Origin: an uncultured delta proteobacterium
GTDB taxonomy: Bacteria; Desulfobacterota; Binatia; UBA9968
Length of the DNA stretch: 64,000 bases
Assembly (NCBI GenBank): GCA_963816145.1
Contig: CAWFJP010000001.1
Span: forward strand, 64,001-128,000
Direction: 5' to 3'
This document shows positions 1,287 to 30,609 of this stretch, piece by piece. Below the pieces are notes generated by a model. That model ran no database searches. It was not told where the DNA came from and saw only the letters and a list, made by a program, of their open reading frames with translations. The translations under genes and the position numbers were made by a program. How positions within the stretch are numbered: position 1 is the first letter of the stretch; each line of letters starts with the position of its first letter.

Positions 1287-1318
1287 CGCTCACCTCCTGG
1301 ATTCAAGATAACCCTAGA

Positions 1319-1333
1319 GCAATTGGCATACCT
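1319..1333 (-). promoter_or_regulatory. Putative sigma-54 promoter of dnaK
   Basis: AGGTATGCCAATTGC (GG-N10-GC) ~33 bp upstream of ATG. Confidence 0.5.
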
Positions 1334-1396
1334 CGATGGAGATTCAACGTTGTTTGGCGTGTACGCCCAATAATCATAGCGACACCGGCGCCTCGC

Positions 1397-1441
1397 TGTC
1401 ATTGACGGGAATCGGCGACCGCGCTTTTGTCAGTTATGAAA
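1397..1441. promoter_or_regulatory. Paired 14-bp palindromic operator (putative enhancer)
   Basis: TGTCATTGACGGGA (1397) and TGTCAGTTATGAAA (1428), 31 bp apart, between divergent sigma-54 motifs. Confidence 0.6.
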
Positions 1442-1471
1442 AGTTTTTACCGTTCCACGTGGCTGTGCTGC

Positions 1472-1486
1472 TGGCACGACGCTTGC
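1472..1486 (+). promoter_or_regulatory. Sigma-54 promoter
   Basis: TGGCACGACGCTTGC, exact TGGCAC-N5-TTGC match. Confidence 0.85.
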
Positions 1487-1578
1487 GCTCTTATTGAATT
1501 GACGGGAGGGCCATCGAGCAGCCGGCGCTGGTTCCCGCCCAAGCTTTTGCAGCGAACCGGCTGGAAAAGGAACTGAAC

Positions 1579-1899
1579 ATGCTAGGTTTATTTCTACTCA
1601 TCGCCGGGGTTATCGCTCTGGGACTCTACTTCATGGTCGCGCCTGCGGTTCTCAACACCTACCGCCGCTACCGCGGACGTCGGACCATCATCTGTCCGGA
1701 AACCGATCAAATCGTCGAAATGGAATTGAAAGCTGGCCGTGCCGGCGTCATGGCGGCACTTGGCAAGCAAGATCTGCGGGTTAAATGGTGCAGCCTGTGG
1801 CCGCGCCGAAAGGGTTGCGCCGAGGAATGTGCAAAATCTGACTGGCCCACGGCCGGGGAGCGCCGCGACCACGACAAGGGCCATGCCAACGGCGTATAG
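1579..1899 (+). CDS. Membrane-anchored Cys-rich hypothetical protein
   Basis: N-terminal TM helix, then CPET...CSLWPRRKGCAEEC; RBS AAGGA. Confidence 0.75.
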   Translation: MLGLFLLIAGVIALGLYFMVAPAVLNTYRRYRGRRTIICPETDQIVEMELKAGRAGVMAALGKQDLRVKWCSLWPRRKGCAEECAKSDWPTAGERRDHDKGHANGV

Positions 1900-1989
1900 A
1901 AACAGCGAAAGCCGAAACCTTCGGGACCTTCGTATGACTGTAGCTTACAATTTGCCCGGCTTGGGCAAATGATTCGGAAGTTGAAGACA

Positions 1990-2182
1990 CTCGGATTCAG
2001 AAATTCCTCCCGCCAAGGCGCAAAGTCGCCAAGTGACGGGGCGAGCCCCGTCATCCCGAACGAATGTGAGGGATCTGAGAAAGATTTCTCCCTTCGGTCG
2101 AAATGACAAAACTCCCCCCTTTGTGCCTTGGCGCCTTTGCCGGAGATATTCCGAGTTTCGCTTGCGGCTGTGCCGCGCTAGG
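1990..2182. repeat. Composite nested palindromic (REP/MITE-like) element
   Basis: Nested IRs CGCCAAGGCGCAAAG/CTTTGTGCCTTGGCG enclosing GTCATCCCGAACGAATGTGAGGGATCT...AGATTTCTCCCTTCGGTCGAAATGAC; core recurs near 22.98 and 29.54 kb. Confidence 0.7.
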
Positions 2183-2226
2183 TTCTTTGCAGTTAATGAT
2201 CCGATTCTTAGTTTTGTCTTTGGTGG

Positions 2227-3549
2227 CTAGGCAGAAGCATCGACCAGCGCCGCGACTCGGCAACCTTCTGCGACATCGACGCGTCGTAACAGCAGTGCAC
2301 CGGCGGCAAACAGCAGGGTGATCGAGACGATACCCCAGCGGCTGCTGCCGGTGAGCTGGCCGACCAAGCCAAAAATCGCCGGGCCGATAATGCCGGCGAC
2401 CTTCTCGCCGGTGCTAAAAAAGCCGAAGAACTCGGCGCTATGGGTTCTCGGCACCATGGCGGCAAACAGCGAGCGGCTGAGCGCCTGGGTGCCGCCCTGG
2501 ACCACGCCGACCATGATCGCCAACGCGTAAAAATCCGCGCTGCTGCGAATGAAAAAGCCGGCCACGGAAATCGCCGCATAGACCGCCAGCCCGGCAAAAA
2601 TGGCCCGCTTCGCGCTCCAACGATGGGCCAGCGCGCCAAAAGCGATGGAACAAGGGAAGCCGATAAATTGCGTGAGAATGAGCGCACCGAGCATGTCGTT
2701 GTGATCGACGCCGATTTCGTCGCCATAGGCGGCCGCAAGCTTGATGATTGTGCCGATGCCATCGTTGTAGAGCCAAAATGACGCGAGAAACAGCGTCAGC
2801 TCGCGGTAGCGGCGAATCTGCCGAAAAGTTTGCAGCAAGCGCGTCAAGCTATCGGCGAAAGCAAGAAACACGGGCGGTCGACTGTGCACCAGGGGCTCGA
2901 CCACGGTGCGAAATAGCGGCACGGCGAAAATCAACCACCAACCAGCCACGCTAATAAAACAGGCGCGCAGTGCCACAGTTCGATCCGCCATCCAGAACCA
3001 ATCGGGACGATAGAGCCAAAGCGCATCGATGACGAGTAACAAACCGCCGCCAAGGTAACCGAGCGCATAGCCGCGCGCCGAGACCCGATCCAAATCGTTC
3101 GCCCGCGCCACCTGGGGCAACAGCGCCTCGTAAAAGATATTGCCGCCGGCAAAGCCGAGGTTGGCGAGGGCAAATAACAGCGAGGCCAGCCGATACTCGC
3201 TTGTGCTGACAAACGCCAAACTCGCCGTACCGAGCGCGCCAAGCCATAGTGCCACCGCCAGGAAGCGCTTCTTAGCGCCCAAAAGATCCGCCGCCGCGCC
3301 GGCCGCTGGACCGAGCGCCGCGACCAACAGCAGTGACAGAGAAGTCGTGTACGCCCAGTACGCCGTCGCAGTTTCCGGCGCCGCGCCGGCGTCCATCACC
3401 AGCGCCCGGTAGTAGACTGGAAAAATCGCCGTAAGGATCACGACAGCGAACGCAGAGTTCGCCCAATCGTACATCGCCCAAGCATGGACGACACGCTGAT
3501 AATCCCATTCGGCGATCTGCGACGGCGACTTCGCTTTGCCATCGTCCAT
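2227..3549 (-). CDS. MFS transporter, UMF1/Atg22-like family
   Basis: AWAMYDWANSAF start, ~12 TM segments, GGTQALSRSLFA...EFFGFF motif. Confidence 0.9.
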   Translation of the reverse strand: MDDGKAKSPSQIAEWDYQRVVHAWAMYDWANSAFAVVILTAIFPVYYRALVMDAGAAPETATAYWAYTTSLSLLLVAALGPAAGAAADLLGAKKRFLAVALWLGALGTASLAFVSTSEYRLASLLFALANLGFAGGNIFYEALLPQVARANDLDRVSARGYALGYLGGGLLLVIDALWLYRPDWFWMADRTVALRACFISVAGWWLIFAVPLFRTVVEPLVHSRPPVFLAFADSLTRLLQTFRQIRRYRELTLFLASFWLYNDGIGTIIKLAAAYGDEIGVDHNDMLGALILTQFIGFPCSIAFGALAHRWSAKRAIFAGLAVYAAISVAGFFIRSSADFYALAIMVGVVQGGTQALSRSLFAAMVPRTHSAEFFGFFSTGEKVAGIIGPAIFGLVGQLTGSSRWGIVSITLLFAAGALLLRRVDVAEGCRVAALVDASA

Positions 3550-3550
3550 A

Positions 3551-4426
3551 TCAGCGCGGCCGGATCACCAGCACCGGGCCCGAAGTGTGACGCACGACTC
3601 GCTCGGTCACACTCCCCAACGGCCATTTGCCGATCCCCGACGCGCCAAGGGTACACATGGCGACCAAACTATCCGGAGTCCTCTTGACCAGGTCGACGAT
3701 CGCGGCTGCGGCGCCGTCGGCGCCGCTTTCGAGCACCAGCGAGTCGACCTGCGAAAGCCCTTGGCGCCGGAGTTGGCTTGCGGTGTCGATCAAGTAACGA
3801 TTCGCCTCGTCGTGCGCCTCGTCCCAGAGTTTCTTAAGATTTGGCGCATTGGCGCCGAACACCGGCAGGAAGGCCTCCGGCGGCGCGCTGTAAATACGTC
3901 TGGCGACGCGAACCAAATCGACTCGGAGCGTCAAGCGCAAAGCCAATTCACTTACTGTCGGTAAAACCGTTTCGGCGAGTTTGGAGCCGTCGAGCGGGAC
4001 GACGACGGCTGTAAATTTCGCCTCAGGGAGAGCTTGGCCGTTTGCCGGGTGCACGAGCAGAACATGATTGGCCGCCGCGTGCAGCACTTTTTCGGCGACA
4101 CTGCCCAAAAGCCAGCGTTTGGTCCCGGAATACCCATGAGTCGCCATGGCGATCAGCATCTCCGGCTCGGCCGCGGCGCACTCGACAATCGTCGCCGCCG
4201 TGTGGCCGGATTCGACAATCAAGCCGGCGGATCCGCCAAAGGACGCGCCGATGGTCGCCAAATATTCGTTCACCATGTAAGGCGCGCATGCCGTGGTGTC
4301 GTGTGGATCGTTGACGCACAAAAGGTCAACCGGGATATTGAGATCCTGCGCCAACAGGCGCGCATAGGGCAGAACCGCTTCGGCAAATTTCGAACCGTCG
4401 AGTGGGATCAAGATCTTGCTATACAT
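3551..4426 (-). CDS. Universal stress protein, two USP domains
   Basis: MYSKILIPLDGSKFAE...MATHGYSGTKRWLLGSVAEKVL and second VVPLDGS...GSVTERVVRHTSGPVLVIR. Confidence 0.93.
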   Translation of the reverse strand: MYSKILIPLDGSKFAEAVLPYARLLAQDLNIPVDLLCVNDPHDTTACAPYMVNEYLATIGASFGGSAGLIVESGHTAATIVECAAAEPEMLIAMATHGYSGTKRWLLGSVAEKVLHAAANHVLLVHPANGQALPEAKFTAVVVPLDGSKLAETVLPTVSELALRLTLRVDLVRVARRIYSAPPEAFLPVFGANAPNLKKLWDEAHDEANRYLIDTASQLRRQGLSQVDSLVLESGADGAAAAIVDLVKRTPDSLVAMCTLGASGIGKWPLGSVTERVVRHTSGPVLVIRPR

Positions 4427-4515
4427 AGAGCCTCGCAGTCTTAATGCGTCAGACAATTCTGGATCGGCCGAAGGAATTGGCGCTCCAGCGCACTGCCATC
4501 TACGTGAACACCAGA

Positions 4516-4530
4516 GCGATAACCGTGCCG
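4516..4530 (-). promoter_or_regulatory. Putative sigma-54 promoter of usp-MFS
   Basis: CGGCACGGTTATCGC (GG-N10-GC). Confidence 0.55.
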
Positions 4531-4636
4531 ACAACCCGTGAGGCTAAATCCCCAGCCGAGTTGGCGCGGGCGACAAAATAGCCTGGCCAGTTGGGGATTT
4601 GCCTTCGAGCCGATGGGCTGCCGAGCTTTTCGCTGA

Positions 4637-4681
4637 TTTCATCCTTGCGAATTTTTTCGCCTGTTTCTGTCAGATATGAAA
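4637..4681. promoter_or_regulatory. Paired 14-bp palindromic operator
   Basis: TTTCATCCTTGCGA (4637) and TGTCAGATATGAAA (4668), 31 bp apart; second site starts 44 bp before the sigma-54 motif, as at 1428/1472. Confidence 0.65.
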
Positions 4682-4711
4682 AAGCTTCCAGCGCCTGCCG
4701 GTGCGATGGTC

Positions 4712-4726
4712 TGGTATGTCGATTGC
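4712..4726 (+). promoter_or_regulatory. Sigma-54 promoter
   Basis: TGGTATGTCGATTGC upstream of the cytochrome c gene. Confidence 0.75.
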
Positions 4727-4762
4727 TCGATTGTTCAATCGCAGCCAAGGAGATCTGACAAA

Positions 4763-5191
4763 ATGGTATCAAACATCTTTAAAGCCACCGGTACGATTCT
4801 CGGTTTGGTCTGGTTATTGTCGCTGCCGTCATCTTTAGCGAGAGCGCAGGAAAGCGAAGTGATCGCCGGCGGTGAACTGGAGTATCAGAACGCGTGCGCG
4901 GTCTGCCATGGCGTCGAAGCCCGAGGCAACGGCATCATGAGCAAGTTCTTAACCGTAAAGCCCGCCAACCTACGTCAGCTCCGGCTGACCCCCGGCGGCA
5001 ACTTTCCCTTTTGGGAAGTTTATCGAAAGATCGACGGGCAGTTCGAGATCAGAGGCCACGGCACGAGAGACATGCCGATCTGGGGCGATCGCTTTCGCGC
5101 TCAAGCTGGCGGCGATGGCAAGAGCGCCCAAACTCAGGCCGCCGGACGCATTCTCAGCTTGGTTTTCTACCTGCAATATATTCAGGAGTAG
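4763..5191 (+). CDS. Monoheme periplasmic cytochrome c
   Basis: Signal peptide, CAVCHG heme motif, HGTRDMPIWG distal Met motif; RBS AAGGAG. Confidence 0.9.
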   Translation: MVSNIFKATGTILGLVWLLSLPSSLARAQESEVIAGGELEYQNACAVCHGVEARGNGIMSKFLTVKPANLRQLRLTPGGNFPFWEVYRKIDGQFEIRGHGTRDMPIWGDRFRAQAGGDGKSAQTQAAGRILSLVFYLQYIQE

Positions 5192-5484: not shown

Positions 5485-6027
5485 CTAGAATGTCTCGGAA
5501 CAGACCGGCTGCGCGGTATTAGATCGGCTGGTATCGACGAGAAAAGTTCCGCTCAGGGCACTGCGGCCAACCAGGAACGGATACATCATTTCCGAGCGGT
5601 CTTTCAAAGTCACCGGGGTGCGAAAGAGTTTTGAACCTAAGCAGATTGAAATTGCCACGACAGGTCTTTTCTCGACGCCCATCGAAGTCTGGATATGACG
5701 CCAGTCGACGACTGGAAGTTGCAGCTGCCGACCACCCCAGCGTTTTCCGAGTTTGAAGTGGGCAACATTATTCTGCACCACTATTTCGCGCGCATCGAGC
5801 GAGGACAGGTCGGCGCCGGTATCGATCCGAGCCGGAAAGCTAATGCCCCAGGGACTGAGGACGACATCTTCAACTACGCCAAGCGTCACCTTGACCGGTT
5901 CGCGACTTGGAGAATATAAAGCTTCGCCCTCTTTTATTTCCTGCGCGTGGAGGATCTGCCCAATCGCATTCGGTCCGGCCAATAAGACCACGAGACAGAC
6001 GAGCCTGCTAAATGTTGATTTGCTCAT
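5485..6027 (-). CDS. Retropepsin-like 'ATP-dependent Zn protease' (RimK-associated) family protein, exported
   Basis: ARIDTGADLSSLDA and LKDRSEMMYPFLVGRSAL motifs; signal peptide. Confidence 0.85.
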   Translation of the reverse strand: MSKSTFSRLVCLVVLLAGPNAIGQILHAQEIKEGEALYSPSREPVKVTLGVVEDVVLSPWGISFPARIDTGADLSSLDAREIVVQNNVAHFKLGKRWGGRQLQLPVVDWRHIQTSMGVEKRPVVAISICLGSKLFRTPVTLKDRSEMMYPFLVGRSALSGTFLVDTSRSNTAQPVCSETF

Positions 6028-6090
6028 GCACGCAGGCTACTCAAAGGGGAAGGGAAATTCAATATCAATCTTTCACGTAGAAATAGGAGT

Positions 6091-6112
6091 GGAGGGAGAC
6101 AGTTCTCCCTCC
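6091..6112. terminator. Hairpin, possible terminator
   Basis: GGAGGGAGA-CAGT-TCTCCCTCC downstream of the small lipoprotein gene. Confidence 0.4.
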
Positions 6113-6168
6113 GCCTACATTATCGGCTAGATCTCGTCGTCGTCTCCGCCGCCGATATATTCATTCGC

Positions 6169-6360
6169 CTAATATTCGTTCCAGTTGATCTTCTCTCGTT
6201 CCTGTTGGGCCTTTTCGAACTCCGCCCTATCCTGTGGGCTCATCTGCTCCACTCGAGCCTGCTCCTCTTCGTATTCCGCATTGAGGCGACTCACAGTGGC
6301 GCAACTTGAACCTAACACGCCAACCAAGAGCAGCAACGTCAACAGACTTGCGGTCTTCAT
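6169..6360 (-). CDS. Small lipoprotein
   Basis: Signal peptide with lipobox-like LGSSC; RBS GGAGGAGG; upstream sigma-54 motif. Confidence 0.7.
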   Translation of the reverse strand: MKTASLLTLLLLVGVLGSSCATVSRLNAEYEEEQARVEQMSPQDRAEFEKAQQEREKINWNEY

Positions 6361-6413
6361 ACAGGTTCACCTCCTCCCTGTTCAGATTCCGCTCCCCTTG
6401 CTCTTTGAATAAA

Positions 6414-6428
6414 GCAAACGTTGTACCA
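6414..6428 (-). promoter_or_regulatory. Sigma-54 promoter
   Basis: TGGTACAACGTTTGC. Confidence 0.75.
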
Positions 6429-6654: not shown

Positions 6655-6669
6655 TGGCACGACCTTTGC
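6655..6669 (+). promoter_or_regulatory. Sigma-54 promoter of archease-rtcB operon
   Basis: TGGCACGACCTTTGC, consensus match 32 bp before archease start. Confidence 0.85.
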
Positions 6670-6701
6670 CATAAAAACTCACCTGTAGGAAATCGTCTCG
6701 G

Positions 6702-7124
6702 ATGTGCGAACCAAGTTGGCAACACTTCCCCCACGGCGCCGACATGGGCGTTCGTGGTATTGGCAAATCGAAAGCGCAAGCCTTTGAACAGGCGGCGATG
6801 GCGCTGACCGCGTTGGTGACCGATCCGCAGTCGGTCTGTGCGGAGATTTTGGTCAAGATCGAATGCAACGCGCCTGACGACGAACTACTCCTGGTCGAAT
6901 GGCTTAATGGCATAATCTTCGAGATGGCAATCAGAAAAATGCTCTTCGCGCGCTTCGCGGTTAACCTCGATGGCAACCGCCTGAACGGAATGGCTTGGGG
7001 CGAAGCCATCGATTTGACCAAGCATGATGCCGCAGTGGAGCCCAAAGGCGCGACTTGCACTAGTTTAGAGGTGTGCCAAGACGAGTCGGGATGTTGGCGG
7101 GCGCAGTGCATCGTCGATGTTTGA
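6702..7124 (+). CDS. Archease (RtcB activator, SHS2 fold)
   Basis: WQHFPHGADMGVRG...EPKGAT...AQCIVDV C-terminus; adjacent to rtcB. Confidence 0.92.
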   Translation: MCEPSWQHFPHGADMGVRGIGKSKAQAFEQAAMALTALVTDPQSVCAEILVKIECNAPDDELLLVEWLNGIIFEMAIRKMLFARFAVNLDGNRLNGMAWGEAIDLTKHDAAVEPKGATCTSLEVCQDESGCWRAQCIVDV

Positions 7125-7134
7125 GGCATACGAA

Positions 7135-8565
7135 ATGGAATTGTCGCGATTACAACAGCAAGCGGAAAACCAGTGGCGCATCGCTCCCTACGGCAAGATG
7201 CGCGTGCCGGCGATTATTTACGCAAGTGAGGCGTTGATCCGCGACATGGATGACAAGGTCTACGAGCAAGTTACCAACGTCGCCAAACTGCCGGGAATCG
7301 TCAAAGCTTCCTACGCCATGCCCGACGCCCACTGGGGCTATGGCTTTCCCATCGGCGGCGTCGCAGCCTTCGATCCGGCAAAAGGCGGCGTGATTTCCGC
7401 CGGCGGCGTCGGCTTCGATATTTCCTGCGGCGTGCGCACCCTGCATACCGGACTGACGCTGGATCAGGTCGAGCCGGTCAAAGAGCGTTTGGCGGATACG
7501 TTATTCGGTAAAATCCCCGCCGGTGTCGGTAGCACGGGACAGTTGAGTCTCAACGAGAAAGAAATGGACGCCATGCTCACCGGCGGAGCGAAGTGGGCGG
7601 TCGCCATCGGCTACGGCCGCCGAGAAGATTTGCAGCGCGTCGAAGAAGACGGCTGCATCCCTGGTGCGGTACCGGAGGATGTCTCGGACCGCGCCAAGAA
7701 GCGCCAGCGCGAAGAGATGGGCACCCTCGGTTCCGGCAATCATTATCTGGAAATCCAGCATGTGCGAAAGATTTTCGACCCGACAATCGCCGCGGCTTTT
7801 GGCTTGAGCCAGGGCGATATTGTGGTCAGCATTCATTGCGGCTCGCGCGGCCTCGGCCATCAGATCGGCACGGAATTTCTCACCCGCATGGTGGCGTCGG
7901 CGGCAACCTATGGAATTGACCTGCCCGACCGCGAGCTGGCCTGCGCGCCGATCGACTCACCGCTGGGACAAGCCTATCTCGGCGCCATGCGCGCGGCGGT
8001 GAATTGCGCGCTCGCCAATCGGCAAATCATCACGCACCTGGTGCGCCAGGCGATTCGCGAAGTCATTCCCCAAGCCGATCTGCCGTTACTCTATGACGTC
8101 TCGCACAATACCTGTAAGGTGGAAGAACATGTCGTCGACGACCGGAAGATGGAGCTTTTTGTCCACCGCAAAGGGGCGACGCGGGCGTTTGGGCCAGGAC
8201 ATCCGGCGCTCCCCGAGTCGTTGCGCGAGATCGGCCAGCCCGTGCTGATCGGCGGCACCATGGGCACCGCATCCTACATACTCGCCGGCACCCGTGAAGG
8301 AATGAATTTATCTTTTGGCTCCGCATGCCACGGCGCGGGCCGAAGCATGAGCCGCCATCAGGCGCTGCGCCAGTGGCGCGGCCGTGAAATCGTTGACAAT
8401 CTGGCGCACCACGGCGTATTGATCCGTAGCCGCTCCATGCGCGGCGTTGCCGAAGAGGCGCCCGGCGCCTATAAAGACGTGAGCGAGGTTGTCGACGCCG
8501 CCGATCGCGCCGGTCTGGCGCGCACCGTGGCACGGCTCGAACCGGTGGTTTGTATCAAGGGATAG
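7135..8565 (+). CDS. rtcB: RNA 3'-phosphate/5'-OH ligase RtcB (archaeal/eukaryal-like clade)
   Basis: MPDAHWGYGFPIGGV, GVGFDISCGVR, GTLGSGNHYLE, HCGSRG, DVSHN, HRKGATRAF, HGAGR, EEAPGAYKDV. Confidence 0.97.
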   Translation: MELSRLQQQAENQWRIAPYGKMRVPAIIYASEALIRDMDDKVYEQVTNVAKLPGIVKASYAMPDAHWGYGFPIGGVAAFDPAKGGVISAGGVGFDISCGVRTLHTGLTLDQVEPVKERLADTLFGKIPAGVGSTGQLSLNEKEMDAMLTGGAKWAVAIGYGRREDLQRVEEDGCIPGAVPEDVSDRAKKRQREEMGTLGSGNHYLEIQHVRKIFDPTIAAAFGLSQGDIVVSIHCGSRGLGHQIGTEFLTRMVASAATYGIDLPDRELACAPIDSPLGQAYLGAMRAAVNCALANRQIITHLVRQAIREVIPQADLPLLYDVSHNTCKVEEHVVDDRKMELFVHRKGATRAFGPGHPALPESLREIGQPVLIGGTMGTASYILAGTREGMNLSFGSACHGAGRSMSRHQALRQWRGREIVDNLAHHGVLIRSRSMRGVAEEAPGAYKDVSEVVDAADRAGLARTVARLEPVVCIKG

Positions 8566-8643
8566 CGGCCGTTGGTCCGAGCCAAATCGATTTGCACCGC
8601 TTGATCGTTGTGAACGATTGGAACCACGAAAGAAGGTGAATTC

Positions 8644-23105: not shown

Positions 23106-23537
23106 TCACTTGCTACCATGGCAAGAGTCGCACGCCCCACGCACTAGCGCGGCGAGCAAAAAATTTGGCGGATCACGCTCGATGCCTTCCCTGGCAAGCT
23201 TTAGATCGCTGCGGAACTTCGGTAGATTCATATCAACCTTCGGATGGTTGGTCGAAAAGCCGGACTGGTCGAGTTTCACTGCCAACGATTCCATGGCGCG
23301 CAGGTGCTCGATTATTTCGCGTCGATGCTTCTCCGGCGCTTCGTCTTGCAGCATTAACTCATCCAGCTGGCGCGAATGAAGCGCCAATTGGCGCATGGTC
23401 GCGCGCACTTCATCGCGCTGAACGTAACGAAACTCCGAAGGATAGGTGTACTGGCGCACCCACCGAGCCATATCCGAGCAGCCTGACAACTGCACGGCAA
23501 TCACCATTGCCAACATCAAACGGTAACCCACTGCCAC
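23106..23537 (-). CDS. Class II (c'/b562-like) cytochrome c lipoprotein
   Basis: Lipobox LSGC, helical body, C-terminal CDSCH. Confidence 0.85.
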   Translation of the reverse strand: MAVGYRLMLAMVIAVQLSGCSDMARWVRQYTYPSEFRYVQRDEVRATMRQLALHSRQLDELMLQDEAPEKHRREIIEHLRAMESLAVKLDQSGFSTNHPKVDMNLPKFRSDLKLAREGIERDPPNFLLAALVRGACDSCHGSK

Positions 23538-23579
23538 CTCCCGGATTTCATCAGATAACCAACTGCAGCAATTGACTAC

Positions 23580-23594
23580 GCATTCTTCTTGCCA
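23580..23594 (-). promoter_or_regulatory. Putative sigma-54 promoter
   Basis: TGGCAAGAAGAATGC. Confidence 0.6.
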
Positions 23595-23718
23595 AAGTCA
23601 CTGGACCCGCCTGCTCGCGATGGACTCAATCTTGCTCGGTTGGAGCATCAGCGGTCTACGACAGTCTATTCTTAGAAGAAATGGGAAAACACGACCGATA
23701 TTGTTCCCAAACTCGGGA

Positions 23719-24126
23719 ATGGACGATGACAGAGTGATAACCCAAACGCTAACCCCGGGGATCCTGGTTGCCGAAAGAGAAGCGACGGCGCGCACCAGTT
23801 TAAGCGAACTCTTGCGCGAAGAAGGTTACCGGGTGGTCGAAGCTGCCGACAGCGCTACGGCAGTCAATGAGCTCGGCCGTGATTCAAGCATCAAGGTAGT
23901 CCTTGCAGATCTGGAAATGCCATCGTGGCCCAGCATTATTCAACATGCCCGCAGCCAACTGCCCGAATCGTTCATTCTCGGCATGCTACGTTACGGCGCT
24001 CTCGCCAATGCTCTCGAAGCCCAACGCCTCGGTGCTCAAGCTTATTTAGTTAAGCCTTTGGACTTTGCCGAGGTGAACCAGTGGATTCGACGCTACCTCA
24101 CCGGCCAGTCGTCGATCAAAATCTGA
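23719..24126 (+). CDS. Stand-alone atypical receiver-domain protein
   Basis: ILVAERE...ADLEMP...YLVKP; start codon uncertain. Confidence 0.8.
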   Translation: MDDDRVITQTLTPGILVAEREATARTSLSELLREEGYRVVEAADSATAVNELGRDSSIKVVLADLEMPSWPSIIQHARSQLPESFILGMLRYGALANALEAQRLGAQAYLVKPLDFAEVNQWIRRYLTGQSSIKI

Positions 24127-24133: not shown

Positions 24134-24148
24134 TGGCATCTTCTTTGC
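24134..24148 (+). promoter_or_regulatory. Sigma-54 promoter
   Basis: TGGCATCTTCTTTGC. Confidence 0.75.
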
Positions 24149-24197
24149 TCATGTTATCTAGCAGGTTAATACCGGTGGGCTTAAACCCGAGGTAGTT

Positions 24198-24308
24198 ATG
24201 GCAAACGAAAATGAACTCTTTTTTCTAGTTCTGATCATCGTCTTAACCATGATCATGCACTTCATTCTCGCGTGGAAGGGATCGGGCCCTCATAGCAAGA
24301 CTAAGTAG
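24198..24308 (+). CDS. 36-aa single-TM small protein
   Basis: MANENELFFLVLIIVLTMIMHFILAWKGSGPHSKTK; RBS GAGGT; own sigma-54 motif. Confidence 0.55.
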   Translation: MANENELFFLVLIIVLTMIMHFILAWKGSGPHSKTK

Positions 24309-24332: not shown

Positions 24333-25469
24333 TCAGCGGCTGGATTTGCGCTGCGGCGCAGTGAGAGATTTGCCGGCGACGAAAGCTTGGCAATCCCTTT
24401 CGTCGGTGAGCGGGCAATAGCGTCTGAGCAACGTATCGTGACAGCTGTAGCGGTACGGAAAGCGATGCAGGTAGGCGGATCGCACCACGCTGCCAAGCTC
24501 CTCGGCGGACAATTCGATGCGGTTTTTGCCGTTCCATTCGCGCAACTTGTTTTCGCACTCCGCAGCGCTCAATCCGAGCAACCGCAGCTCCGAAGCCAGG
24601 CGAATCGCGCAGTTATTGCGGTAGCCCGGCTCGATATGGCGCTGCCAGATCGCTTGGGCGCCGGCGCAAGGGAATTGCATCTCGGTTAGATTCATTGGCC
24701 GGCTGAAGCGATAGTCGAAAGGCCGCCGCGTTAGCTTTTTGAACTGGCGCTGAATGCGCCCGAGCAATTCACCGGCGGCAAGATTTTCCGCGACCGCCGC
24801 TTGCGACAGCAATCCGGTTTCATCCGTCAACAGCAGAGGAATGGCCTGCTTTGCCCGTTGACGAATCTGGTCGGCATTGAGCTTTAGCAAATCCGCCGGC
24901 GCAAGCAGCGTTTTGTAAAGCTGCGATTTCTCATGAACCGTATTGGGCAAGCGCAAAAGGCGCATGCGGTCTTTTATCGATAGGTCGACGACATCGCGCA
25001 GTCGCTCGGGCAGCTGCTGGGCGACATGACGCCGCAGCGCGTCGAAGATCATGGGCCAGTTGCGCGCCGGCGCCATTTTACCGAACAGCCGGGTGTCCAG
25101 CATGAAATGAAAACCCTTGGCGCCGCTGAAATAGATCTGCAAGCCATTGGGATCGATGCGCCAGCGGTCAAGGAATAGGTCGCCGAGCAAGCGCGCGCAT
25201 TCCAGCGCCGGCAGCAAATCCGGATGATCTATATCGATCGGCAGATAGGGCGCCCAGACCTTGCCTTGGTAGCCGGAAACGCTCGGCGCCGCGGCGGTTT
25301 GCGCGCTCATGTATGTCAGCAGCTCGTCGGAAAAGAAAAAATAGCTGCTGTAGCAGCCGAAGTATTTGAACTTTTCCAGCAGCCCCGGCACATCGGTAAC
25401 CGGCACGACATGGTTGCGAAAACCCTTCTGGTAATGGGCGGCAAAATCGACCAAGCGATAGCGGCTCAT
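24333..25469 (-). CDS. Archaeo-eukaryotic primase (AEP/prim-pol)-like protein with PriCT-1-like C-terminus
   Basis: Motif I PIDID, motif II FSGAKGFH, motif III region DLSIKDRMRLLRLPNT, C-terminal GYRNNCAIRLASEL...EL..VVRSAY plus Cys residues. Confidence 0.82.
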   Translation of the reverse strand: MSRYRLVDFAAHYQKGFRNHVVPVTDVPGLLEKFKYFGCYSSYFFFSDELLTYMSAQTAAAPSVSGYQGKVWAPYLPIDIDHPDLLPALECARLLGDLFLDRWRIDPNGLQIYFSGAKGFHFMLDTRLFGKMAPARNWPMIFDALRRHVAQQLPERLRDVVDLSIKDRMRLLRLPNTVHEKSQLYKTLLAPADLLKLNADQIRQRAKQAIPLLLTDETGLLSQAAVAENLAAGELLGRIQRQFKKLTRRPFDYRFSRPMNLTEMQFPCAGAQAIWQRHIEPGYRNNCAIRLASELRLLGLSAAECENKLREWNGKNRIELSAEELGSVVRSAYLHRFPYRYSCHDTLLRRYCPLTDERDCQAFVAGKSLTAPQRKSSR

Positions 25470-25475
25470 GGAGCG

Positions 25476-25481
25476 ATTATA
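25476..25481 (-). promoter_or_regulatory. -10 box of probable leaderless sigma-70 promoter
   Basis: TATAAT 6 nt upstream of the AEP ATG, no RBS. Confidence 0.5.
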
Positions 25482-25602
25482 ACGCGCTGATTGCCGACCG
25501 CGAAGCGGCGGCAGCCAAAGCATCGCCGCCGACCCGGCTGGTTTTACTGAAGCCATGTTATCTAGAAAATGCAAAATACGCGCCCTCGATTCACAAGCAA
25601 TT

Positions 25603-25648
25603 TCTCACCGGCGCAAAGCGATCATGGCGAATATTCTCAGTTCTGACG
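25603..25648. promoter_or_regulatory. Paired 14-bp operator
   Basis: TCTCACCGGCGCAA (25603) and TCTCAGTTCTGACG (25635), 32 bp apart. Confidence 0.45.
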
Positions 25649-25697
25649 ACCGGTGTTCTAATTCAGAAATTCGTTGATCAAAAACTGTGTTGATTCA

Positions 25698-25892: not shown

Positions 25893-25907
25893 TGGCATAG
25901 CTCCTGC
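25893..25907 (+). promoter_or_regulatory. Sigma-54 promoter of BON-FmdB-CBS operon
   Basis: TGGCATAGCTCCTGC. Confidence 0.75.
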
Positions 25908-25935
25908 AAAGTCTCTACTCGGAGGCCATGGGTCA

Positions 25936-26709
25936 ATGCTCCACAACCAGAAAGAAGCAGCGCGCCGGCAAACCACCAAGCGACAAGTTGGCCACGGCGC
26001 AATTATTAACCGGATCGGCGCGGCGCTGGAAAAGGAAACCAGGGTCAATCTGCATCGTCATGCGATCAAGCTGGAGTTCACCGGTGACGATCTCGCGCTA
26101 ACCGGCGAGCTGGAGGATGTCGCTGCGAAAAAGATCGCCCTAGAATTGGCCGCGACGGTCGCGCCGGGAGTGGGCCTCGTCGATCGGCTGAGAGTAACGC
26201 CGGCACAGTCCATGAGCGACGCGGAATTGCGTGATCATCTGCTCAAAATATTGCTCGACGAGCCGGCGTTGGAACATTGCTTGTTGCACAGCCGGCTACC
26301 GCAACAATTACAAACCCATCGTAATGACGTCCCAGAGCCCGTCGGCACCATTGTGGTCGAAGTCCGCGACGGTGTGGTCACACTCAACGGCGAAGTACCG
26401 AGCCTGTCGCACAAGCGCCTCGCCGGCCTGCTCGCTTGGTGGGTTCCCGGCTGCCGTGACGTGATCAACGGTTTAGCCGAGGTGCCGGCGCAGAAAGACA
26501 ACGACGACGAGCTCACCGACGCGGTGCGTCTGGCTCTCAAAAAGGATCCTTTCGTCAATGCCACGAAGATGCAGGTCAGGAGCAAAAATGGCGTTGTCAC
26601 CTTAAACGGATTAGTCCCAAGCGAGACCATGCAACGAATCGCCGTGCGCGATGCTTGGTTCATATTCGGGGTCAGGGATGTCGTCAACAAGATTCAGGCC
26701 AAATGGTGA
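25936..26709 (+). CDS. BON-domain protein (three BON domains)
   Basis: VEVRDGVVTLNGEV...PGCRDVINGL; KNGVVTLNGLV...GVRDVVNKI. Confidence 0.88.
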   Translation: MLHNQKEAARRQTTKRQVGHGAIINRIGAALEKETRVNLHRHAIKLEFTGDDLALTGELEDVAAKKIALELAATVAPGVGLVDRLRVTPAQSMSDAELRDHLLKILLDEPALEHCLLHSRLPQQLQTHRNDVPEPVGTIVVEVRDGVVTLNGEVPSLSHKRLAGLLAWWVPGCRDVINGLAEVPAQKDNDDELTDAVRLALKKDPFVNATKMQVRSKNGVVTLNGLVPSETMQRIAVRDAWFIFGVRDVVNKIQAKW

Positions 26710-26727
26710 GGCACAGGAGAAACGGCC

Positions 26728-26901
26728 ATGCCAACCTATGAGTTCCGCTGCGAGAAGTGCGGCAAAGTATTCGAGCAAGTTTGGTCGCTGTCGGACTATG
26801 ACCGCAAGCTGAAAGAAAAACAGAAATGTCCGTCCTGCCACAGCACCCGCGTGGTCAAGACGATTTCCATGGTGCAGGTAAAAACCTCGAAGAAAAGTTG
26901 A
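26728..26901 (+). CDS. FmdB-family zinc-ribbon protein (57 aa)
   Basis: MPTYEFRCEKCGKVFE...CPSCHSTRVVKTISMVQVKTSKKS; RBS AGGAG. Confidence 0.88.
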   Translation: MPTYEFRCEKCGKVFEQVWSLSDYDRKLKEKQKCPSCHSTRVVKTISMVQVKTSKKS

Positions 26902-26914
26902 TGAGGGTAAGAGT

Positions 26915-27343
26915 ATGAACGCCGCCGCCCAAGCCTTCCTTGAAAAAACCGTCGCCGAAGTCATGAGCACCGATTTGATAACCTTGAAGCTCAACGACAC
27001 CCTGCGTTTGGCCGACGACATGTTCAACTTGGCGCAGGTCCGCCATTTTCCAGTTCTCGACGGCGACATGGTCGCCGGCATCGTCAATCAAGACGATCTG
27101 CTGCATGCCTCGATGGTTTCCTTGGCGCGACATCCTAACGATTCGCCGCGCGAAGCCCTCGGCGCCGTCGTGGTCAAGGACATCATGAAAACGGCGATCA
27201 CCATCAGCCCGGACCTGCCGATCCGCGCCGCCGCCAAAACCATGATCGAAAATGGTATCGAAGCTTTGTTGGTGGTGAGCGGTGAAAAGTTACTCGGCTT
27301 GGTGACGCGGACCGATTTGCTCCGCGAACTGGCCAAAGCCTGA
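26915..27343 (+). CDS. CBS-domain protein
   Basis: VAEVMSTDL...VRHFPV...GLVTRTDLLR. Confidence 0.9.
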   Translation: MNAAAQAFLEKTVAEVMSTDLITLKLNDTLRLADDMFNLAQVRHFPVLDGDMVAGIVNQDDLLHASMVSLARHPNDSPREALGAVVVKDIMKTAITISPDLPIRAAAKTMIENGIEALLVVSGEKLLGLVTRTDLLRELAKA

Positions 27344-27362
27344 GACGAGAGAGGAGCAGAGT

Positions 27363-27974
27363 ATGATCGTTGGCAACCGCATGACCCAAGAACCGATCAC
27401 CGTAGACCCCGAAGATTTATCGATCCGCGCTTCGCTTAAGATGCAAGCAGGCGGGTTTCGCCGCCTGCCGGTGGTGAGCGACGGCAAGCTCGTCGGCATC
27501 ATTAGTGAGCGCGACCTGCGCGAACACCGCGGCCATCTGGAACAGATCAAAATCAACGGCATCATGACCGAAAACCCGATTACCGTAACCCCGACGACTA
27601 CCGTCGAGGAAGCCGCGCAGATCATGCTGGAACGGCGGGTCGGCGGCCTGCCGGTGGTCGCCGACGGGCGCGTGGTCGGCATCGTTACGGCAAGCGATAT
27701 TTTGCGCGCCTTCCTCGATGTAATGGGCGCATCGCATGGCGGCAGCAGCCGGATCGATTTTCTCCTCGAGGGTGAAGAGCATGGCTTCGTCGAGGCCACA
27801 CGCTTAGTCGCTCGTGAAGGCGGCGAAGTCCTAGGCGTCGGCACCTATCGGGAAAAACTTGGCGACAATCCAGTTTGCTACCTGCGCCTAGTCGGCGGCA
27901 CGCCGGATGATTTCGCCAAAGCCCTGCGCAGCAGGGGCTTCACTGTATTGGGTGTTCATAAAATCGGCGGCTAA
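27363..27974 (+). CDS. CBS-pair plus ACT-domain protein (AcuB-like)
   Basis: Two CBS repeats then SSRIDFLL...GGEVLGV ACT-like region. Confidence 0.88.
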   Translation: MIVGNRMTQEPITVDPEDLSIRASLKMQAGGFRRLPVVSDGKLVGIISERDLREHRGHLEQIKINGIMTENPITVTPTTTVEEAAQIMLERRVGGLPVVADGRVVGIVTASDILRAFLDVMGASHGGSSRIDFLLEGEEHGFVEATRLVAREGGEVLGVGTYREKLGDNPVCYLRLVGGTPDDFAKALRSRGFTVLGVHKIGG

Positions 27975-28038
27975 AGATCTAAGCGCAAACGACTTTAACT
28001 TTTTAAAGGCTTGAACCCAGCTGAGCGAGGAGGTCACG

Positions 28039-28467
28039 ATGTCACTACAACCCTACTGCCGCAAACCAGTGATCAAGATTTCACCCGAAACCAGCATCAC
28101 CGAAGCCTGCCATTTGATGGAGCAAAACAACGTCGGCTCTCTGGTCGCTGAGAAAAACGGCAAACTTTGCGGCATCGTCACCGACCGCGATATCGCCCTG
28201 CGTGTCGCCGGGGCCAAGCGCGATCCGGACAAGACCACCGTCAAAGACATCATGACACCGGATCCGATCCGCATCTCGGTCGACAAGGACCTGCATCATT
28301 TGACCGCGCTGATGCATGCCTACCATGTCCGGCGCGTGCCGATCGTCAACGGCTTCGACACCACGCTCGGCATCGTTACACTGGACGACTTGATCGCCCA
28401 GTTGGGCGATCAAATGGCGGATATCGGCAAAGCGATCTCCGAAGAGTTTCTCCAGGGCAATGCTTAG
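28039..28467 (+). CDS. CBS-domain protein
   Basis: NVGSLV...GIVTDRDIALRV...VRRVPIV...GIVTLDDL. Confidence 0.9.
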   Translation: MSLQPYCRKPVIKISPETSITEACHLMEQNNVGSLVAEKNGKLCGIVTDRDIALRVAGAKRDPDKTTVKDIMTPDPIRISVDKDLHHLTALMHAYHVRRVPIVNGFDTTLGIVTLDDLIAQLGDQMADIGKAISEEFLQGNA

Positions 28468-28512
28468 CTTCCATGCGATCGAAGCACGGCGGCACGAACC
28501 AAGGAGCCGATT

Positions 28513-28788
28513 ATGTCGGAAGTCATCCAAGCACTGCGCGACGAGCATCAGCTCTTGCGGCCGGAGATCGAGAAGCTGCTTTTGGTCGCGGATGGCATCG
28601 GCGAATTGTCGCGCGACCGCCTGCTTGAACTGAATAGGCAGGTTTATGAAAATCTCAAAGCTGAAAAACATCTGGCGATCGTCGAGGGAGCGACCGATCT
28701 GTTTGCGGAGCGCGGGACTTTGCGCCAAGTGGCGCGACTGGCTGCGAATTGGTTCACGCGCCGCCTCGGCAACAAAACAGACCGCTAA
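28513..28788 (+). pseudogene. Chimeric ORF: hemerythrin-like N-terminus joined to alpha/beta-hydrolase (DLH-like) C-terminus
   Basis: ALRDEHQLLRPEIEKL..VAD, then LELNRQVYENLKAEKHLAIVEGATDLFAERGTLRQVARLAANWF. Confidence 0.5.
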
Positions 28789-28818: not shown

Positions 28819-29304
28819 TTAAGCCGCCCACAGCGGCCGCGTTTCGTCGCTCAACAGAGCACGAATCTCCTCGCGATGCTTCGTTGCGTCCGCCTCGATA
28901 CGATCAAGCAAGGCGACGAGCGCCGGGAATTCGGCGCCGATCGCAAGCTTGTCTTCGGCGATTTCCGCGATACAGCGGCGCTCGTCATCAAGATCGCTGC
29001 GCAGATACTCCCAAGGATTATCATGGCTACAATAAAAAGCGGTTACCGTCGGCGGCGTGCCGCCGAGGCCAACGATGTTTTCCTCGATGACACGGACGTG
29101 ATCGGCTTCTTTGGCCGCCATACGCAGTAAGGCCCAGCGGATCTGGTCATCAGCGATTCTCCCGGCGTGCTGGCGAAAGCGCATCACATGCTGCTTCTCG
29201 CGGACGTAGCGATGACACAGCACATCGAGAACCCTATCCCGGGCGTCACCGGTGGCGTTATTCGAGTCCGGGTGAACCGCGAACCCTGTGTTTTGCAGCA
29301 ACAT
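28819..29304 (-). CDS. Ferritin-like (rubrerythrin/bacterioferritin-fold) protein
   Basis: EKQH, EADH, LGG, DLDDE, DATKH carboxylate/His pattern. Confidence 0.8.
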   Translation of the reverse strand: MLLQNTGFAVHPDSNNATGDARDRVLDVLCHRYVREKQHVMRFRQHAGRIADDQIRWALLRMAAKEADHVRVIEENIVGLGGTPPTVTAFYCSHDNPWEYLRSDLDDERRCIAEIAEDKLAIGAEFPALVALLDRIEADATKHREEIRALLSDETRPLWAA

Positions 29305-29360
29305 ACCCGACTCCTTTCCGGCAGCTTCCAGACCGCCCTACTTAGCTACCAAAGGATTGA

Positions 29361-29375
29361 GCAAGGACGACACCA
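29361..29375 (-). promoter_or_regulatory. Putative sigma-54 promoter
   Basis: TGGTGTCGTCCTTGC. Confidence 0.65.
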
Positions 29376-29436
29376 AACCGGAATTGATGCCGTCGGGAAG
29401 CTGAAGGGACATCAGTCAATTTGGCGGAGCGACGAT

Positions 29437-29481
29437 TCGCAGAGCCGAGAATAACCCCGGCGTCCGGTATCAGTTCTGCTA
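29437..29481. promoter_or_regulatory. Paired 14-bp operator
   Basis: TCGCAGAGCCGAGA (29437) and TATCAGTTCTGCTA (29468), 31 bp apart. Confidence 0.55.
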
Positions 29482-29500
29482 ACCCTTCCGCCGTCCACAA

Positions 29501-29632
29501 GAGGCTGTGTCGTAATGCGCAAATGCCCCACATTTGTCATCCCGAGCGCAGCGAGGGATCTCGTGTTTTCAGCCACATACGAAGAAGAGATTTCTCGGCT
29601 TCACCTCGAAATGACAGTTGCGACACAGTCTC
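29501..29632. mobile_element. MITE-like element with 15-bp TIR and internal REP palindrome
   Basis: GAGGCTGTGTCGTAA / TTGCGACACAGTCTC; CAA on both flanks; internal GTCATCCCGAGCGCAGCGAGGGATCTC...GAGATTTCTC...CGAAATGAC. Confidence 0.65.
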
Positions 29633-29784
29633 CAAGTGGAGACAGAGTTGTAAGCGGTTTTCTTCTTGCCCCGTTGCGGCGTATCCCGCTCCCGCTTGAG
29701 GGGGAGGATGAAGCTGGGAGTGCGGTCCTTACCTTACAATGCTATCCGCAATCGTTTGCGCAACCTGCGCAAATCTTCAGAGGA

Positions 29785-29872
29785 CTCACCGCGGAGACGC
29801 CGAGCACGCGGAGTAAAGAGATTTTTGATGAAGATCATTCCGAACTCTGCGAACTCTGTGCCTCTGCGGTGC
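29785..29872. repeat. Palindromic repeat, separate family
   Basis: CACCGCGGAGACGCCGAGCACGCGGAG ... CTCTGCGAACTCTGTGCCTCTGCGGTG. Confidence 0.6.
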
Positions 29873-29905
29873 CATTCCGTTTTTTTTCGGCGCTGCGACG
29901 TGTTC

Positions 29906-30427
29906 TCACGCCGGCCAGACCGACTGCGGGTCGCTGCGCGCCGCCATATCGCGAATCTCGCTGCGGTGTCTTTCGCCGTCTTCGTAGATCCGTTCGAGCA
30001 TCGCGGCGATATCCGGAAGCTCGTTGCGTACCGTCTGCATTATTTCGATCAAATCGTCCGAGCAGTGTTTTTCTTCCTCAAGATCAGCGAGTAAGTACTG
30101 CCAGCTATTCCTACTCGTCGGCGGCTGCTTCGGCACGTTGGGGATAGTCCCGCCAAACAGCGTGATCTTCTCCGCCAGCCACTCGGCGTGACGCGCCTCA
30201 TCCGCCGCGATACGCAACAGCTTCTCGCGGAACTGCGGATACTGCATCTGTTCGGCGTGCGCGGTATAGCGTCGCACATGCTGCATCTCTTCGACATAAC
30301 GGGAACTGAGAATTTTGATTACATCCCGGTAGCCGCCCGGTGAAACGCCAAGAAACTGCCGCCACCAATCCGACCAGCTTTTCTCATAAGTCATAAGCGC
30401 GACCCTTCCCTCATTAGTTTTCATCAT
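29906..30427 (-). CDS. Ferritin-like protein, paralog of 28819-29304
   Basis: EEMQH, DEARHAEWL, FGG, DLEEEKH, DGERH. Confidence 0.82.
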   Translation of the reverse strand: MMKTNEGRVALMTYEKSWSDWWRQFLGVSPGGYRDVIKILSSRYVEEMQHVRRYTAHAEQMQYPQFREKLLRIAADEARHAEWLAEKITLFGGTIPNVPKQPPTSRNSWQYLLADLEEEKHCSDDLIEIMQTVRNELPDIAAMLERIYEDGERHRSEIRDMAARSDPQSVWPA

Positions 30428-30452
30428 CCTACCCTTCCTACAAATAGCTATA

Positions 30453-30467
30453 GCAAAGGTCGATCCA
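30453..30467 (-). promoter_or_regulatory. Putative sigma-54 promoter
   Basis: TGGATCGACCTTTGC. Confidence 0.65.
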
Positions 30468-30530
30468 CTCAGCGATATCGAGAATTTCCGGCAAGCAGGC
30501 AGCGGGGCCATCAAAAAGAGTTTAGCTGAT

Positions 30531-30575
30531 TTGCAGAACTGAGAGGCGTTCGGAGTGCTTGTCGCAAAACTGACA
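30531..30575. promoter_or_regulatory. Paired 14-bp operator
   Basis: TTGCAGAACTGAGA (30531) and TCGCAAAACTGACA (30562), 31 bp apart. Confidence 0.62.
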
Positions 30576-30609
30576 AGCACTGTGATTTCCGCTCGTGCCA
30601 GTTTAAATT

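Follow-up and report, generated by a model that had tools for sequence, protein, structure and literature searches.

A candidate low-oxygen sigma-54 regulon in a Candidatus Binatia family, with a FixL-type kinase beside its predicted activator

What switches on a 30-kb island of USP, CBS, BON and ferritin-like genes in an uncultured bacterium, and is oxygen the signal? The island occupies about positions 1300–30,600 of the stretch of DNA analysed here (the window), 64,000 nucleotides of contig CAWFJP010000001.1 (assembly GCA_963816145.1; G000:C1:64001-128000, G000 being the source genome). In its middle lie the genes of a sigma-54 activator and of a sensor kinase with a FixL-like PAS domain, and an earlier sequence-only reading had proposed that the two run an O2-sensing regulon through sigma-54 promoters. 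The explanation favoured here, held with reasonable though not high confidence, is a low-oxygen, energy-crisis (dormancy) sigma-54 regulon of a Candidatus Binatia family under the FixL-type kinase and the adjacent activator. Control of the regulon by O2, judged from the sensor and the gene content, is probable.

The genome measures 7.8 Mb in 31 contigs, with about 56% G+C and a completeness rated at 99%. Candidatus Binatia are the named relatives of both kinase and activator. Near-identical DNA occurs in metagenomes of wetland and soil, at least half of the sampled words being present in each of 19 DNA runs, and the genome encodes heme-copper oxidase subunit I twice; both points speak for the explanation favoured here.

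Sigma-54 promoters and a palindromic enhancer

All 15 GG-N10-GC motifs named in the sequence-only reading are present and correctly oriented (the position given there for a minus-strand site is the lower-numbered end of its 15-mer). They score 8.9–16.8 bits on a fixed textbook -24/-12 matrix, which was built from the consensus, was not trained on the island and was applied with a threshold of 8 bits. The 14 measured sites end 24–91 nt before a start codon and the 24134+ site ends ~48 nt before a 36-codon open reading frame (ORF). Placing the motif at nearly every transcription unit was too strong: 14 of the 22 unit heads in the island carry a site of at least 8 bits, and no 8-bit site stands at the heads of cfa (6.9 bits), the kinase gene, the lone REC gene (7.2 bits), SPFH or DUF1488. 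Two sites had been overlooked, the conserved one of the activator gene itself and a doubtful one before a primase-like gene. The island boundaries are those chosen in the earlier reading; the gene caller was home-made, and three island genes were missed or mis-started (14221, 16287, 24198).

A scan against background and shuffled DNA, which that reading had proposed, bears out the density of sites. Elsewhere in the genome 421 of 4890 heads reach 8 bits (Fisher p 2.5e-10). On the wrong strand only 2 of the 22 island heads do so, 200 dinucleotide shuffles gave a mean of 2.0 heads with a site and a maximum of 6, and the remainder of the 64-kb window has 3/22. The island is the genome's top 30-kb window for sigma-54 sites; the next hotspots, at about C1:144-159 kb and C2:36-78 kb, plus C1:6-28 kb, contain further USP, CBS and Hsp20 genes. 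There is one rpoN copy in the genome, together with 34 full-length matches to sigma-54 activator ATPases. A matrix trained by expectation-maximisation on non-island upstream regions drifted to noise, and the fixed textbook matrix was used instead.

A de novo palindromic search of 111 promoter-upstream regions (17 from the island and 94 from relatives) returned tTTCgCA-N4-TGcGAAa in ~80% of them. The matrix for this putative enhancer was retrained on the relatives' 94 promoters alone and used at a threshold of 8 bits; the training set is not fully independent, because the relatives share orthologous promoters. Within 260 bp, 13 of the 17 island promoters have a match, three of them more than 200 bp from the promoter, versus 961 of 6846 general upstream regions. 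Within 130 bp the figures are 10/17 versus 70/425 other sigma-54-like promoters, and nine of the 15 promoters first named have such an enhancer. The pair in the activator leader and the site before the kinase gene outscore every other enhancer match in the 64-kb window.

The distances from enhancer to -24 element cluster at 36, 46, 56, 67, 77, 88 and 99 bp, a period of 10.5 bp. Helical phasing at this period amounts to R 0.63 outside the island (n=45) and 0.54 inside it (n=14), compared with 0.03 (n=40) and 0.24 (n=6) for control anchors. Partner enhancers lie 30–31 bp away in 41 cases, and at any other spacing in the range 12–79 no more than four times. The predicted enhancers are palindromic, often paired 30–31 bp apart and kept to a single face of the helix with respect to the promoter.

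That all these motifs are chance matches in AT-rich intergenic DNA is hardly credible. Given the 421 heads quoted above and the 292 that reach 8 bits on the wrong strand genome-wide, single weak sites (8.9–9.5 bits) may be noise; for the whole set, chance is refuted by the strand bias, the outcome of the shuffles, the rank of the hotspot, conservation in relatives, the phasing on the helix and the constant spacing of the pairs. As a prediction from sequence, the sigma-54 regulon is real and well supported.

The sensor kinase, the activator and its REC-less sister

The second PAS domain of the kinase matches FixL heme domains with an E-value of 1.7e-29, and DosP only with 1e-14. The alignment retains equivalents of His200, Arg206, His214 and Arg220; in FixL, according to the available part of the source, His200 is the heme ligand and Arg220 binds O2 (PMC10765370). 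Among the 120 homologues listed out of 988, the last PAS domain keeps the proximal His in 120 and the distal Arg in 119, and 84 of the 120 have two heme-PAS domains. Their N-terminal parts are variable (CHASE, GAF, further PAS). These data support a FixL-type heme-PAS sensor, in which the PAS domain with its proximal His and its distal Arg immediately precedes the kinase core. Together with the Pfam domains of the neighbouring REC-AAA+-HTH protein, they also uphold the pairing that the sequence-only reading had recognised.

This pairing is conserved in the family. The kinase is present in 22 of 36 family genomes and in none of 24 genomes from other families of the order. Of the 20 genomes that have an activator orthologue (at least 72% identity), 15 have the kinase gene immediately upstream of it; in two genomes the genes are apart, and three are undecidable. 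Synteny, which had been suggested as a check, holds for the pair in these 15; the wider gene order is heavily shuffled among relatives. At E 1e-90, a search of 300 genomes phylum-wide that scored only six candidates per genome found the kinase in one, of the same family; among 80 distant activator loci, often short, none had a FixL-type PAS at E 1e-10. A second FixL-type PAS kinase of 368 aa is encoded at G000:C23:78533 with no adjoining activator. The cluster around it (G000:C23:64081-79639) comprises NAPRTase, a hydrolase, class II ribonucleotide reductase (RNR), an archaeal-type S-adenosylmethionine synthetase, PRPP synthetase, CapA, ClpB and DksA-BON, and presumably resembles the mycobacterial Rv0569-0574c block.

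The activator falls below every NCBIfam equivalog cut-off shown. Its GAFTGA-type loop reads GSFTGA, and GAFTGA in three orthologues. The link to the promoters is the enhancer. It occurs in the leader of 16 of 16 orthologous activator genes (9.6–21 bits; those with upstream sequence, one locus without any being left out) and in none of seven paralogues (~60% identity, different recognition helix). This supports the adjacent REC-AAA+-HTH protein as the predicted activator of the promoters that share the enhancer. The paralogous activator (loci L141-L146, L010), which is not found in G000, has a strong sigma-54 site of its own in five loci; its neighbours are what we take to be CsbD-like, CBS or 2-oxoacid dehydrogenase genes. 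The lone REC protein is 37% alike to the activator's REC domain, which is its best genome match after one lone-REC paralogue.

A second activator, without a REC domain, is encoded at G000:C29:111381-113399 behind two small genes, one of them weakly ferritin-like (E 0.003). A 19.5-bit enhancer precedes its operon, and the protein is found in 13 of 24 genus genomes. This REC-less sister may share the sites.

Promoters, enhancer geometry and conserved linkage can be read from the DNA itself, and they suggest the following course of events. At low O2 the ligand would leave the PAS heme and the kinase would switch on, as in deoxy-FixL. It would then phosphorylate the adjacent activator, which may oligomerise on the paired enhancers, three turns apart, and open ~40 promoters, among them those of USP, CBS, Hsp20, ClpB, DnaK, a ribosome hibernation factor, PFK, glycogen phosphorylase and ferritin-like proteins. 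Binding of the activator to its own leader and to that of the kinase would amount to autoregulation of either sign. The lone REC protein may buffer phosphate as a sink, and the REC-less sister probably acts on the same enhancers as a second input.

Extent of the regulon and rival explanations

The island had been equated with the regulon, and this is not so, as enhancer–promoter pairs are spread genome-wide. Outside the island 44 promoters pass both the sigma-54 and the enhancer thresholds. With the enhancer threshold raised to 12 bits, 40 of 425 sigma-54-like promoters pass and ~11 would be expected, so roughly 30 should be real; with the island, the predicted regulon has about 40 promoters. 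A scan of 45 proteins (listed targets and neighbours picked by the author) includes USP, CBS, Hsp20, HPF, PFK, phosphorylase, malic enzyme, PFOR, ClpB and DksA-type fingers. Pfam confirms the gene families of the island, and with the parallels to lxa targets described below it supports the DosR- or lxa-like content that had been noticed.

Several single genes had been proposed as members. DnaK and the activase stand, since both have a site and an enhancer, retained together in two of four and two of two orthologues, respectively. For RtcB the support comes from relatives alone: four of 11 archease orthologues have a site and a strong enhancer 67–69 bp upstream. Membership of cfa finds no support, with no sigma-54 site here or in the one orthologue examined. 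The site and enhancer of the SHOCT-CBS-PRT operon (16486..18918) are also present in relatives. The window dnaK (1-1286, minus strand) is 56% identical to a copy at G000:C17:241948 and occurs in four of 60 family genomes; its N-terminus presumably resembles archaeal DnaK.

A number of observations weigh against a single low-oxygen switch. The first concerns the enhancers: promoters 6428-, 6655+, 14155+, 16214+ and 24134+ have no 8-bit enhancer within 130 bp (at the last three none was found nearby), and a sixth, 25893+, has one only ~250 bp away, its nearest pair lying ~250–280 bp upstream. With five of the 15 promoters lacking an enhancer and a REC-less sister in the genome, the claim that one activator explains all sites does not hold. 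The island could accordingly be a mix of several sigma-54 regulons, in which the kinase–activator pair controls just a part of the promoters, and rtcB, the cytochrome c genes and the small ORFs answer to other members of the set of 34 activators. The 14155 promoter lacks an enhancer in its one orthologue too, and the shuffled gene order also favours such a mix. Against it, the enhancers found in four of 11 archease-rtcB orthologues are correctly phased as well as strong, such enhancers also precede the 36-aa ORF and the zinc-ribbon gene in some relatives, and distant or weak sites can serve activators. Such a mixture is quite improbable, and it is partly compatible with the low-oxygen regulon.

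The second group of observations concerns the signal. Many kinase orthologues have CHASE or GAF domains, which could sense other signals, and heme-PAS domains also bind NO and CO, as stated in the available part of PMC10765370. In the assembly, indels and a stop disrupt the kinase gene in its 5' third (the CHASE part) and leave the PAS-PAS-kinase frame open; an intact orthologue carries CHASE. Contigs of three DNA runs are without most of the listed indels, so the break is either an assembly error or strain-specific decay. The REC-less activator (G000:C29:112455) belongs to the nearest clade, the same well-supported one, and its recognition helix is almost identical. Six genomes with only this activator show the enhancer–promoter pattern three to six times, and three genomes with neither activator show it two to three times. 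The cbb3 subunit FixO was looked for and not found, in contrast to FixK or NmpR regulons.

A rival reading is a general growth-arrest or stress regulon built on the same promoters and enhancer and driven mainly by the REC-less activator and its ferritin-like neighbours; the heme-PAS kinase would be one of several inputs, or would respond to NO, CO or redox state. The sister's near-identical helix and the 19.5-bit site before its operon, the persistence of the pattern in genomes without the kinase–activator pair, the missing FixO and the generic stress genes (chaperones, RtcB, Hsp20) all favour it. However, eight genomes with only the window-type activator keep 2–12 pattern matches, often the highest counts; the leader enhancer is invariant among orthologous activators, the O2-binding Arg is retained in nearly all of the listed kinases, and a content of class II RNR, PFOR, USP and phosphorylase fits anoxia. 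We consider the stress regulon unlikely, although it is the strongest of the rivals. The low-oxygen regulon may also be framed more boldly, as an independent hypoxia-dormancy switch: a FixL-type kinase, often with tandem heme-PAS domains, would phosphorylate an activator whose enhancer is shared with a di-iron-gated REC-less sister, two metal-based O2 sensors converging on ~40 promoters across the family. This version is put forward only tentatively, and on present evidence it is rather doubtful.

The degenerate enhancer–promoter pattern was counted in 61 genomes; it has matches in 36/36 genomes of family f1 and 8/19 of family f3. It separates the two families and follows no single activator; its counts are small and noisy.

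Table 1. Predicted promoters, enhancers and genes of the island (window coordinates)
Feature	Position	Strand	Score or remark
Second dnaK copy, running off the window end, and sigma-54 site 1319-1333	1..1333	-	9.5 bits; enhancer 100 bp upstream
Enhancer common to divergent promoters 1333- and 1472+	1425..1444	.	13.6 bits
Sigma-54 site 1472-1486 and 106-aa membrane protein	1472..1899	+	16.8 bits; no Pfam family
Sigma-54 site 4516-4530, tandem USP, ATG22-like MFS transporter	2227..4530	-	Pfam, matrix
Enhancer pair, 31 bp apart, between divergent promoters 4530- and 4712+	4634..4684	.	8.5, 9.1 bits
Sigma-54 site 4712-4726 and monoheme cytochrome c	4712..5191	+	Pfam, matrix
Sigma-54 site 6414-6428, 63-aa lipoprotein-like ORF, RimK-type Zn protease family protein	5485..6428	-	13.9 bits; weak enhancer, 6.2
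Sigma-54 site 6655-6669, archease, RtcB, SPFH, DUF1488	6655..9759	+	15.2 bits; weak enhancer, 6.2
Enhancer 9815-9834, sigma-54 site 9904-9918, 1392-aa acyl-CoA dehydratase activase family protein	9815..14130	+	
Sigma-54 site 14155-14169 and cytochrome c	14155..14661	+	11.4 bits; no enhancer found (score <0)
Cyclopropane fatty-acid synthase	14701..16110	-	no sigma-54 site at head
Sigma-54 site 16214-16228 and 56-aa zinc-ribbon protein	16214..16457	+	no enhancer within 130 bp
Enhancer pair 18868-18887/18899-18918, sigma-54 site 18806-18820, operon of SHOCT, 84-aa protein, CBS, CBS, PRT	16486..18918	-	
REC-AAA+-HTH sigma-54 activator, 452 aa, GSFTGA loop	18995..20353	-	Pfam REC, Sigma54_activat, HTH_8
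Tandem enhancer pair 20362-20381/20392-20411, 30 bp apart, activator leader	20362..20411	.	18.4, 17.8 bits
Sigma-54 -24/-12 site of activator gene	20456..20470	-	13.7 bits; similar site in relatives
Sensor kinase, CHASE-transmembrane-PAS-PAS (heme type)-HisKA-HATPase	20488..22798	-	open frame 20488-22035
FixL-type heme-PAS, His200/Arg206/His214/Arg220 equivalents	21181..21549	-	E 1.7e-29 to FixL structures
Strong enhancer-type site directly before kinase start	22875..22894	.	18.0 bits; kept in relative G003
Enhancer pair 23670-23689/23702-23721, sigma-54 site 23580-23594, lipoprotein-like protein ending CXXCH	23106..23721	-	kept in 3/4 relatives
Single-domain REC protein	23719..24126	+	Pfam; candidate phosphate sink
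Sigma-54 site 24134-24148 and 36-aa membrane peptide (conserved)	24134..24308	+	no enhancer within 130 bp
PriCT-1-containing primase-like protein, possible site 25571-25585, enhancer pair 25600-25619/25632-25651	24333..25651	-	
Sigma-54 site 25893-25907, BON-BON protein, zinc ribbon, three CBS proteins, 91-aa ORF	25893..28788	+	
Enhancer 29434-29453, sigma-54 site 29361-29375, ferritin-like protein	28819..29453	-	
Enhancer pair 30528-30547/30559-30578, sigma-54 site 30453-30467, rubrerythrin/ferritin-like protein	29906..30578	-	conserved in relatives

Some small genes of the island deserve separate mention. The 36-aa membrane peptide (24198-24308, plus strand) is unannotated, has a strong sigma-54 site before it and occurs in four relatives, each with a sigma-54 site. 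The zinc-ribbon microproteins encoded at 16287-16457 and 26728-26901 (both plus strand; PF09723) are paralogous; the gene of the former has a sigma-54 site to itself and is antisense in the interval separating PRT from cfa. The stand-alone PriCT-1 primase-like protein (24333-25469, minus strand) travels with the kinase–activator pair in several relatives, often with an upstream enhancer. Short intergenic repeats, likely REP or MITE-like, are located at about 22990-23060, 25700-25740 and 29515-29600; the first two have very high depth in metagenome contigs.

In the rest of the window, paralogous nucleotidyltransferase-family genes occur at 41092-43296 (plus strand), with further copies at G000:C1:147701, C3:5812 and C30:129028; two of these genes stand behind a sigma-54 site with an enhancer. 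A phosphoketolase-like gene is followed by an F-type ATP synthase operon of atypical gene order (57037-64000, plus strand), which we take to be N-ATPase-like. Split frames are seen in a CheB-CheR kinase (31407-35037), a glycogen-branching-like enzyme (48465-50256) and a P-type ATPase (53500-56166). Together with the 11 of 63 long proteins of relatives that have no full-length match in the genome, they suggest indel errors in the assembly. Contigs of the soil metatranscriptome X20 are 88–98% alike over several island genes and cover almost none of the kinase; they carry no starts, strand or level and were not used as evidence. Three other RNA runs contain next to none of the sampled words.

Comparison with known systems

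The sequence-only reading had taken a hypoxia regulon wired through sigma-54 to be undescribed, and here it was overtaken by the literature, as NmpRSTU of Myxococcus xanthus is already published (PMC11841059). The available parts of the papers describe a heme O2-sensor kinase, an NtrC-like activator, paired palindromes, a required sigma-54 site, autoregulation and hypoxic induction of CBS and USP genes (PMC11841059, PMC6211767), as well as a receiver-only phosphate sink (PMC11841059). The predicted Binatia system resembles it in autoregulation and in CBS and USP targets under sigma-54. NmpU senses with a protoglobin; it is active with O2 and is inverted by the hybrid kinase NmpS (PMC11841059). 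Here, in contrast, the sensor is a PAS kinase of the FixL type whose gene adjoins that of the activator, and no protoglobin (PF11563) match is found in the genome. According to the same source, NmpR acts at seven promoters, including those of cbb3 oxidase and hemN, through the site GCGCA-N5-TGCGC, mostly with 14–15 nt between sites (PMC11841059). In contrast, the site here is TTCGCA-N4-TGCGAA at 30–31 bp centre to centre, with ~40 promoters and no FixO; scanning window positions 1-32000 for the NmpR site at up to two mismatches turned up no exact copy.

In place of M. xanthus NmpR, three Nmp-like myxobacterial activators were chosen by their adjacency to a protoglobin kinase. They are 40–44% identical to the Binatia activator, have another recognition helix and form a separate clade in a tree of 59 AAA+ sequences, the deep branches of which are weakly supported. 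In their loci, USP or CBS genes occur together with paired GCGCA-N5-TGCGC sites. One myxobacterial locus (L160-L161, G362:C156) has two protoglobin genes, an Nmp-like activator and several such paired sites; its USP, CBS, PRPP synthetase and AAA_33-like genes make up much the same target kit under another regulator. By sensor, activator clade and site, the predicted Binatia system is not a member of NmpRSTU.

With BjFixL the kinase shares the PAS-PAS(heme)-kinase layout and the four residue equivalents; unlike in FixL–FixJ, its partner is a sigma-54 AAA+ activator and not FixJ. Against the FixL equivalog the kinase scores 233 with a cut-off of 850 bits. The island has no exact match to an FNR/FixK-type box, and four matches with one mismatch. 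Partial precedents are Brucella NtrY-NtrX and Vibrio FlrB-FlrC, which combine a heme-binding PAS kinase with an NtrC-family regulator; the PAS domains of NtrY and FlrB are not known to be FixL-type, NtrX is not known to activate sigma-54, and the genes under FlrC are flagellar. The activator scores 348 against the NtrX equivalog cut-off of 600.

The DosR system has GAF-heme sensors, a LuxR-type regulator and sigma-70-type promoters. We assume that the PRT, NAPRTase, CapA, nrdZ, PFK and Rv2004c-like content parallels the DosR regulon. As far as the available part of the source describes it, mycobacterial DosRST is like the predicted system in having a heme sensor kinase, autoregulation, heat-shock proteins and USPs (PMC10034137). 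The target families also match the clustered, low-O2-induced lxa genes of Burkholderia cenocepacia, which in the accessible text comprise USPs, alpha-crystallin, phospholipid-binding proteins, class II ribonucleotide reductase and a cation ATPase (PMC3721108). The lxa motif there is the Anr/Fnr-like TGA-N6-TCA and the regulator candidates are of the CRP family (PMC3721108), whereas the Binatia island has sigma-54 sites and the palindromic enhancer. In Planctomycetes, USP and CBS families are enriched behind predicted sigma-54 sites, as the available part of that study states (PMC12316311). A literature search covering main texts and few subscription journals found no FixL-type kinase coupled to a sigma-54 activator and returned Nmp as the sole direct precedent; the titles and abstract openings of the Binatota literature yielded nothing on regulation of this kind.

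The logic of the response is thus already known from Myxococcus. The TTCGCA-N4-TGCGAA enhancer with its helical phasing and pairing is new here, and a FixL-type sensor wired straight to a sigma-54 activator appears to be so as well. For an uncultured soil and wetland lineage, an O2 sensor with its regulator, binding site and regulon is now predicted, and all of these are testable in a laboratory host. The candidate anoxia genes that emerge are those of RtcB-archease, the second DnaK, the primase-like protein and several microproteins. As a switch of only two genes, the step from heme-PAS to sigma-54 would make a tight O2-responsive part as well. If the reading is true, the USP/CBS/Hsp20 low-oxygen survival kit has been rewired once again, after DosR, Fnr/Anr-type and globin-NmpR control, this time from a FixL-type PAS to sigma-54 through an activator unrelated to NmpR.

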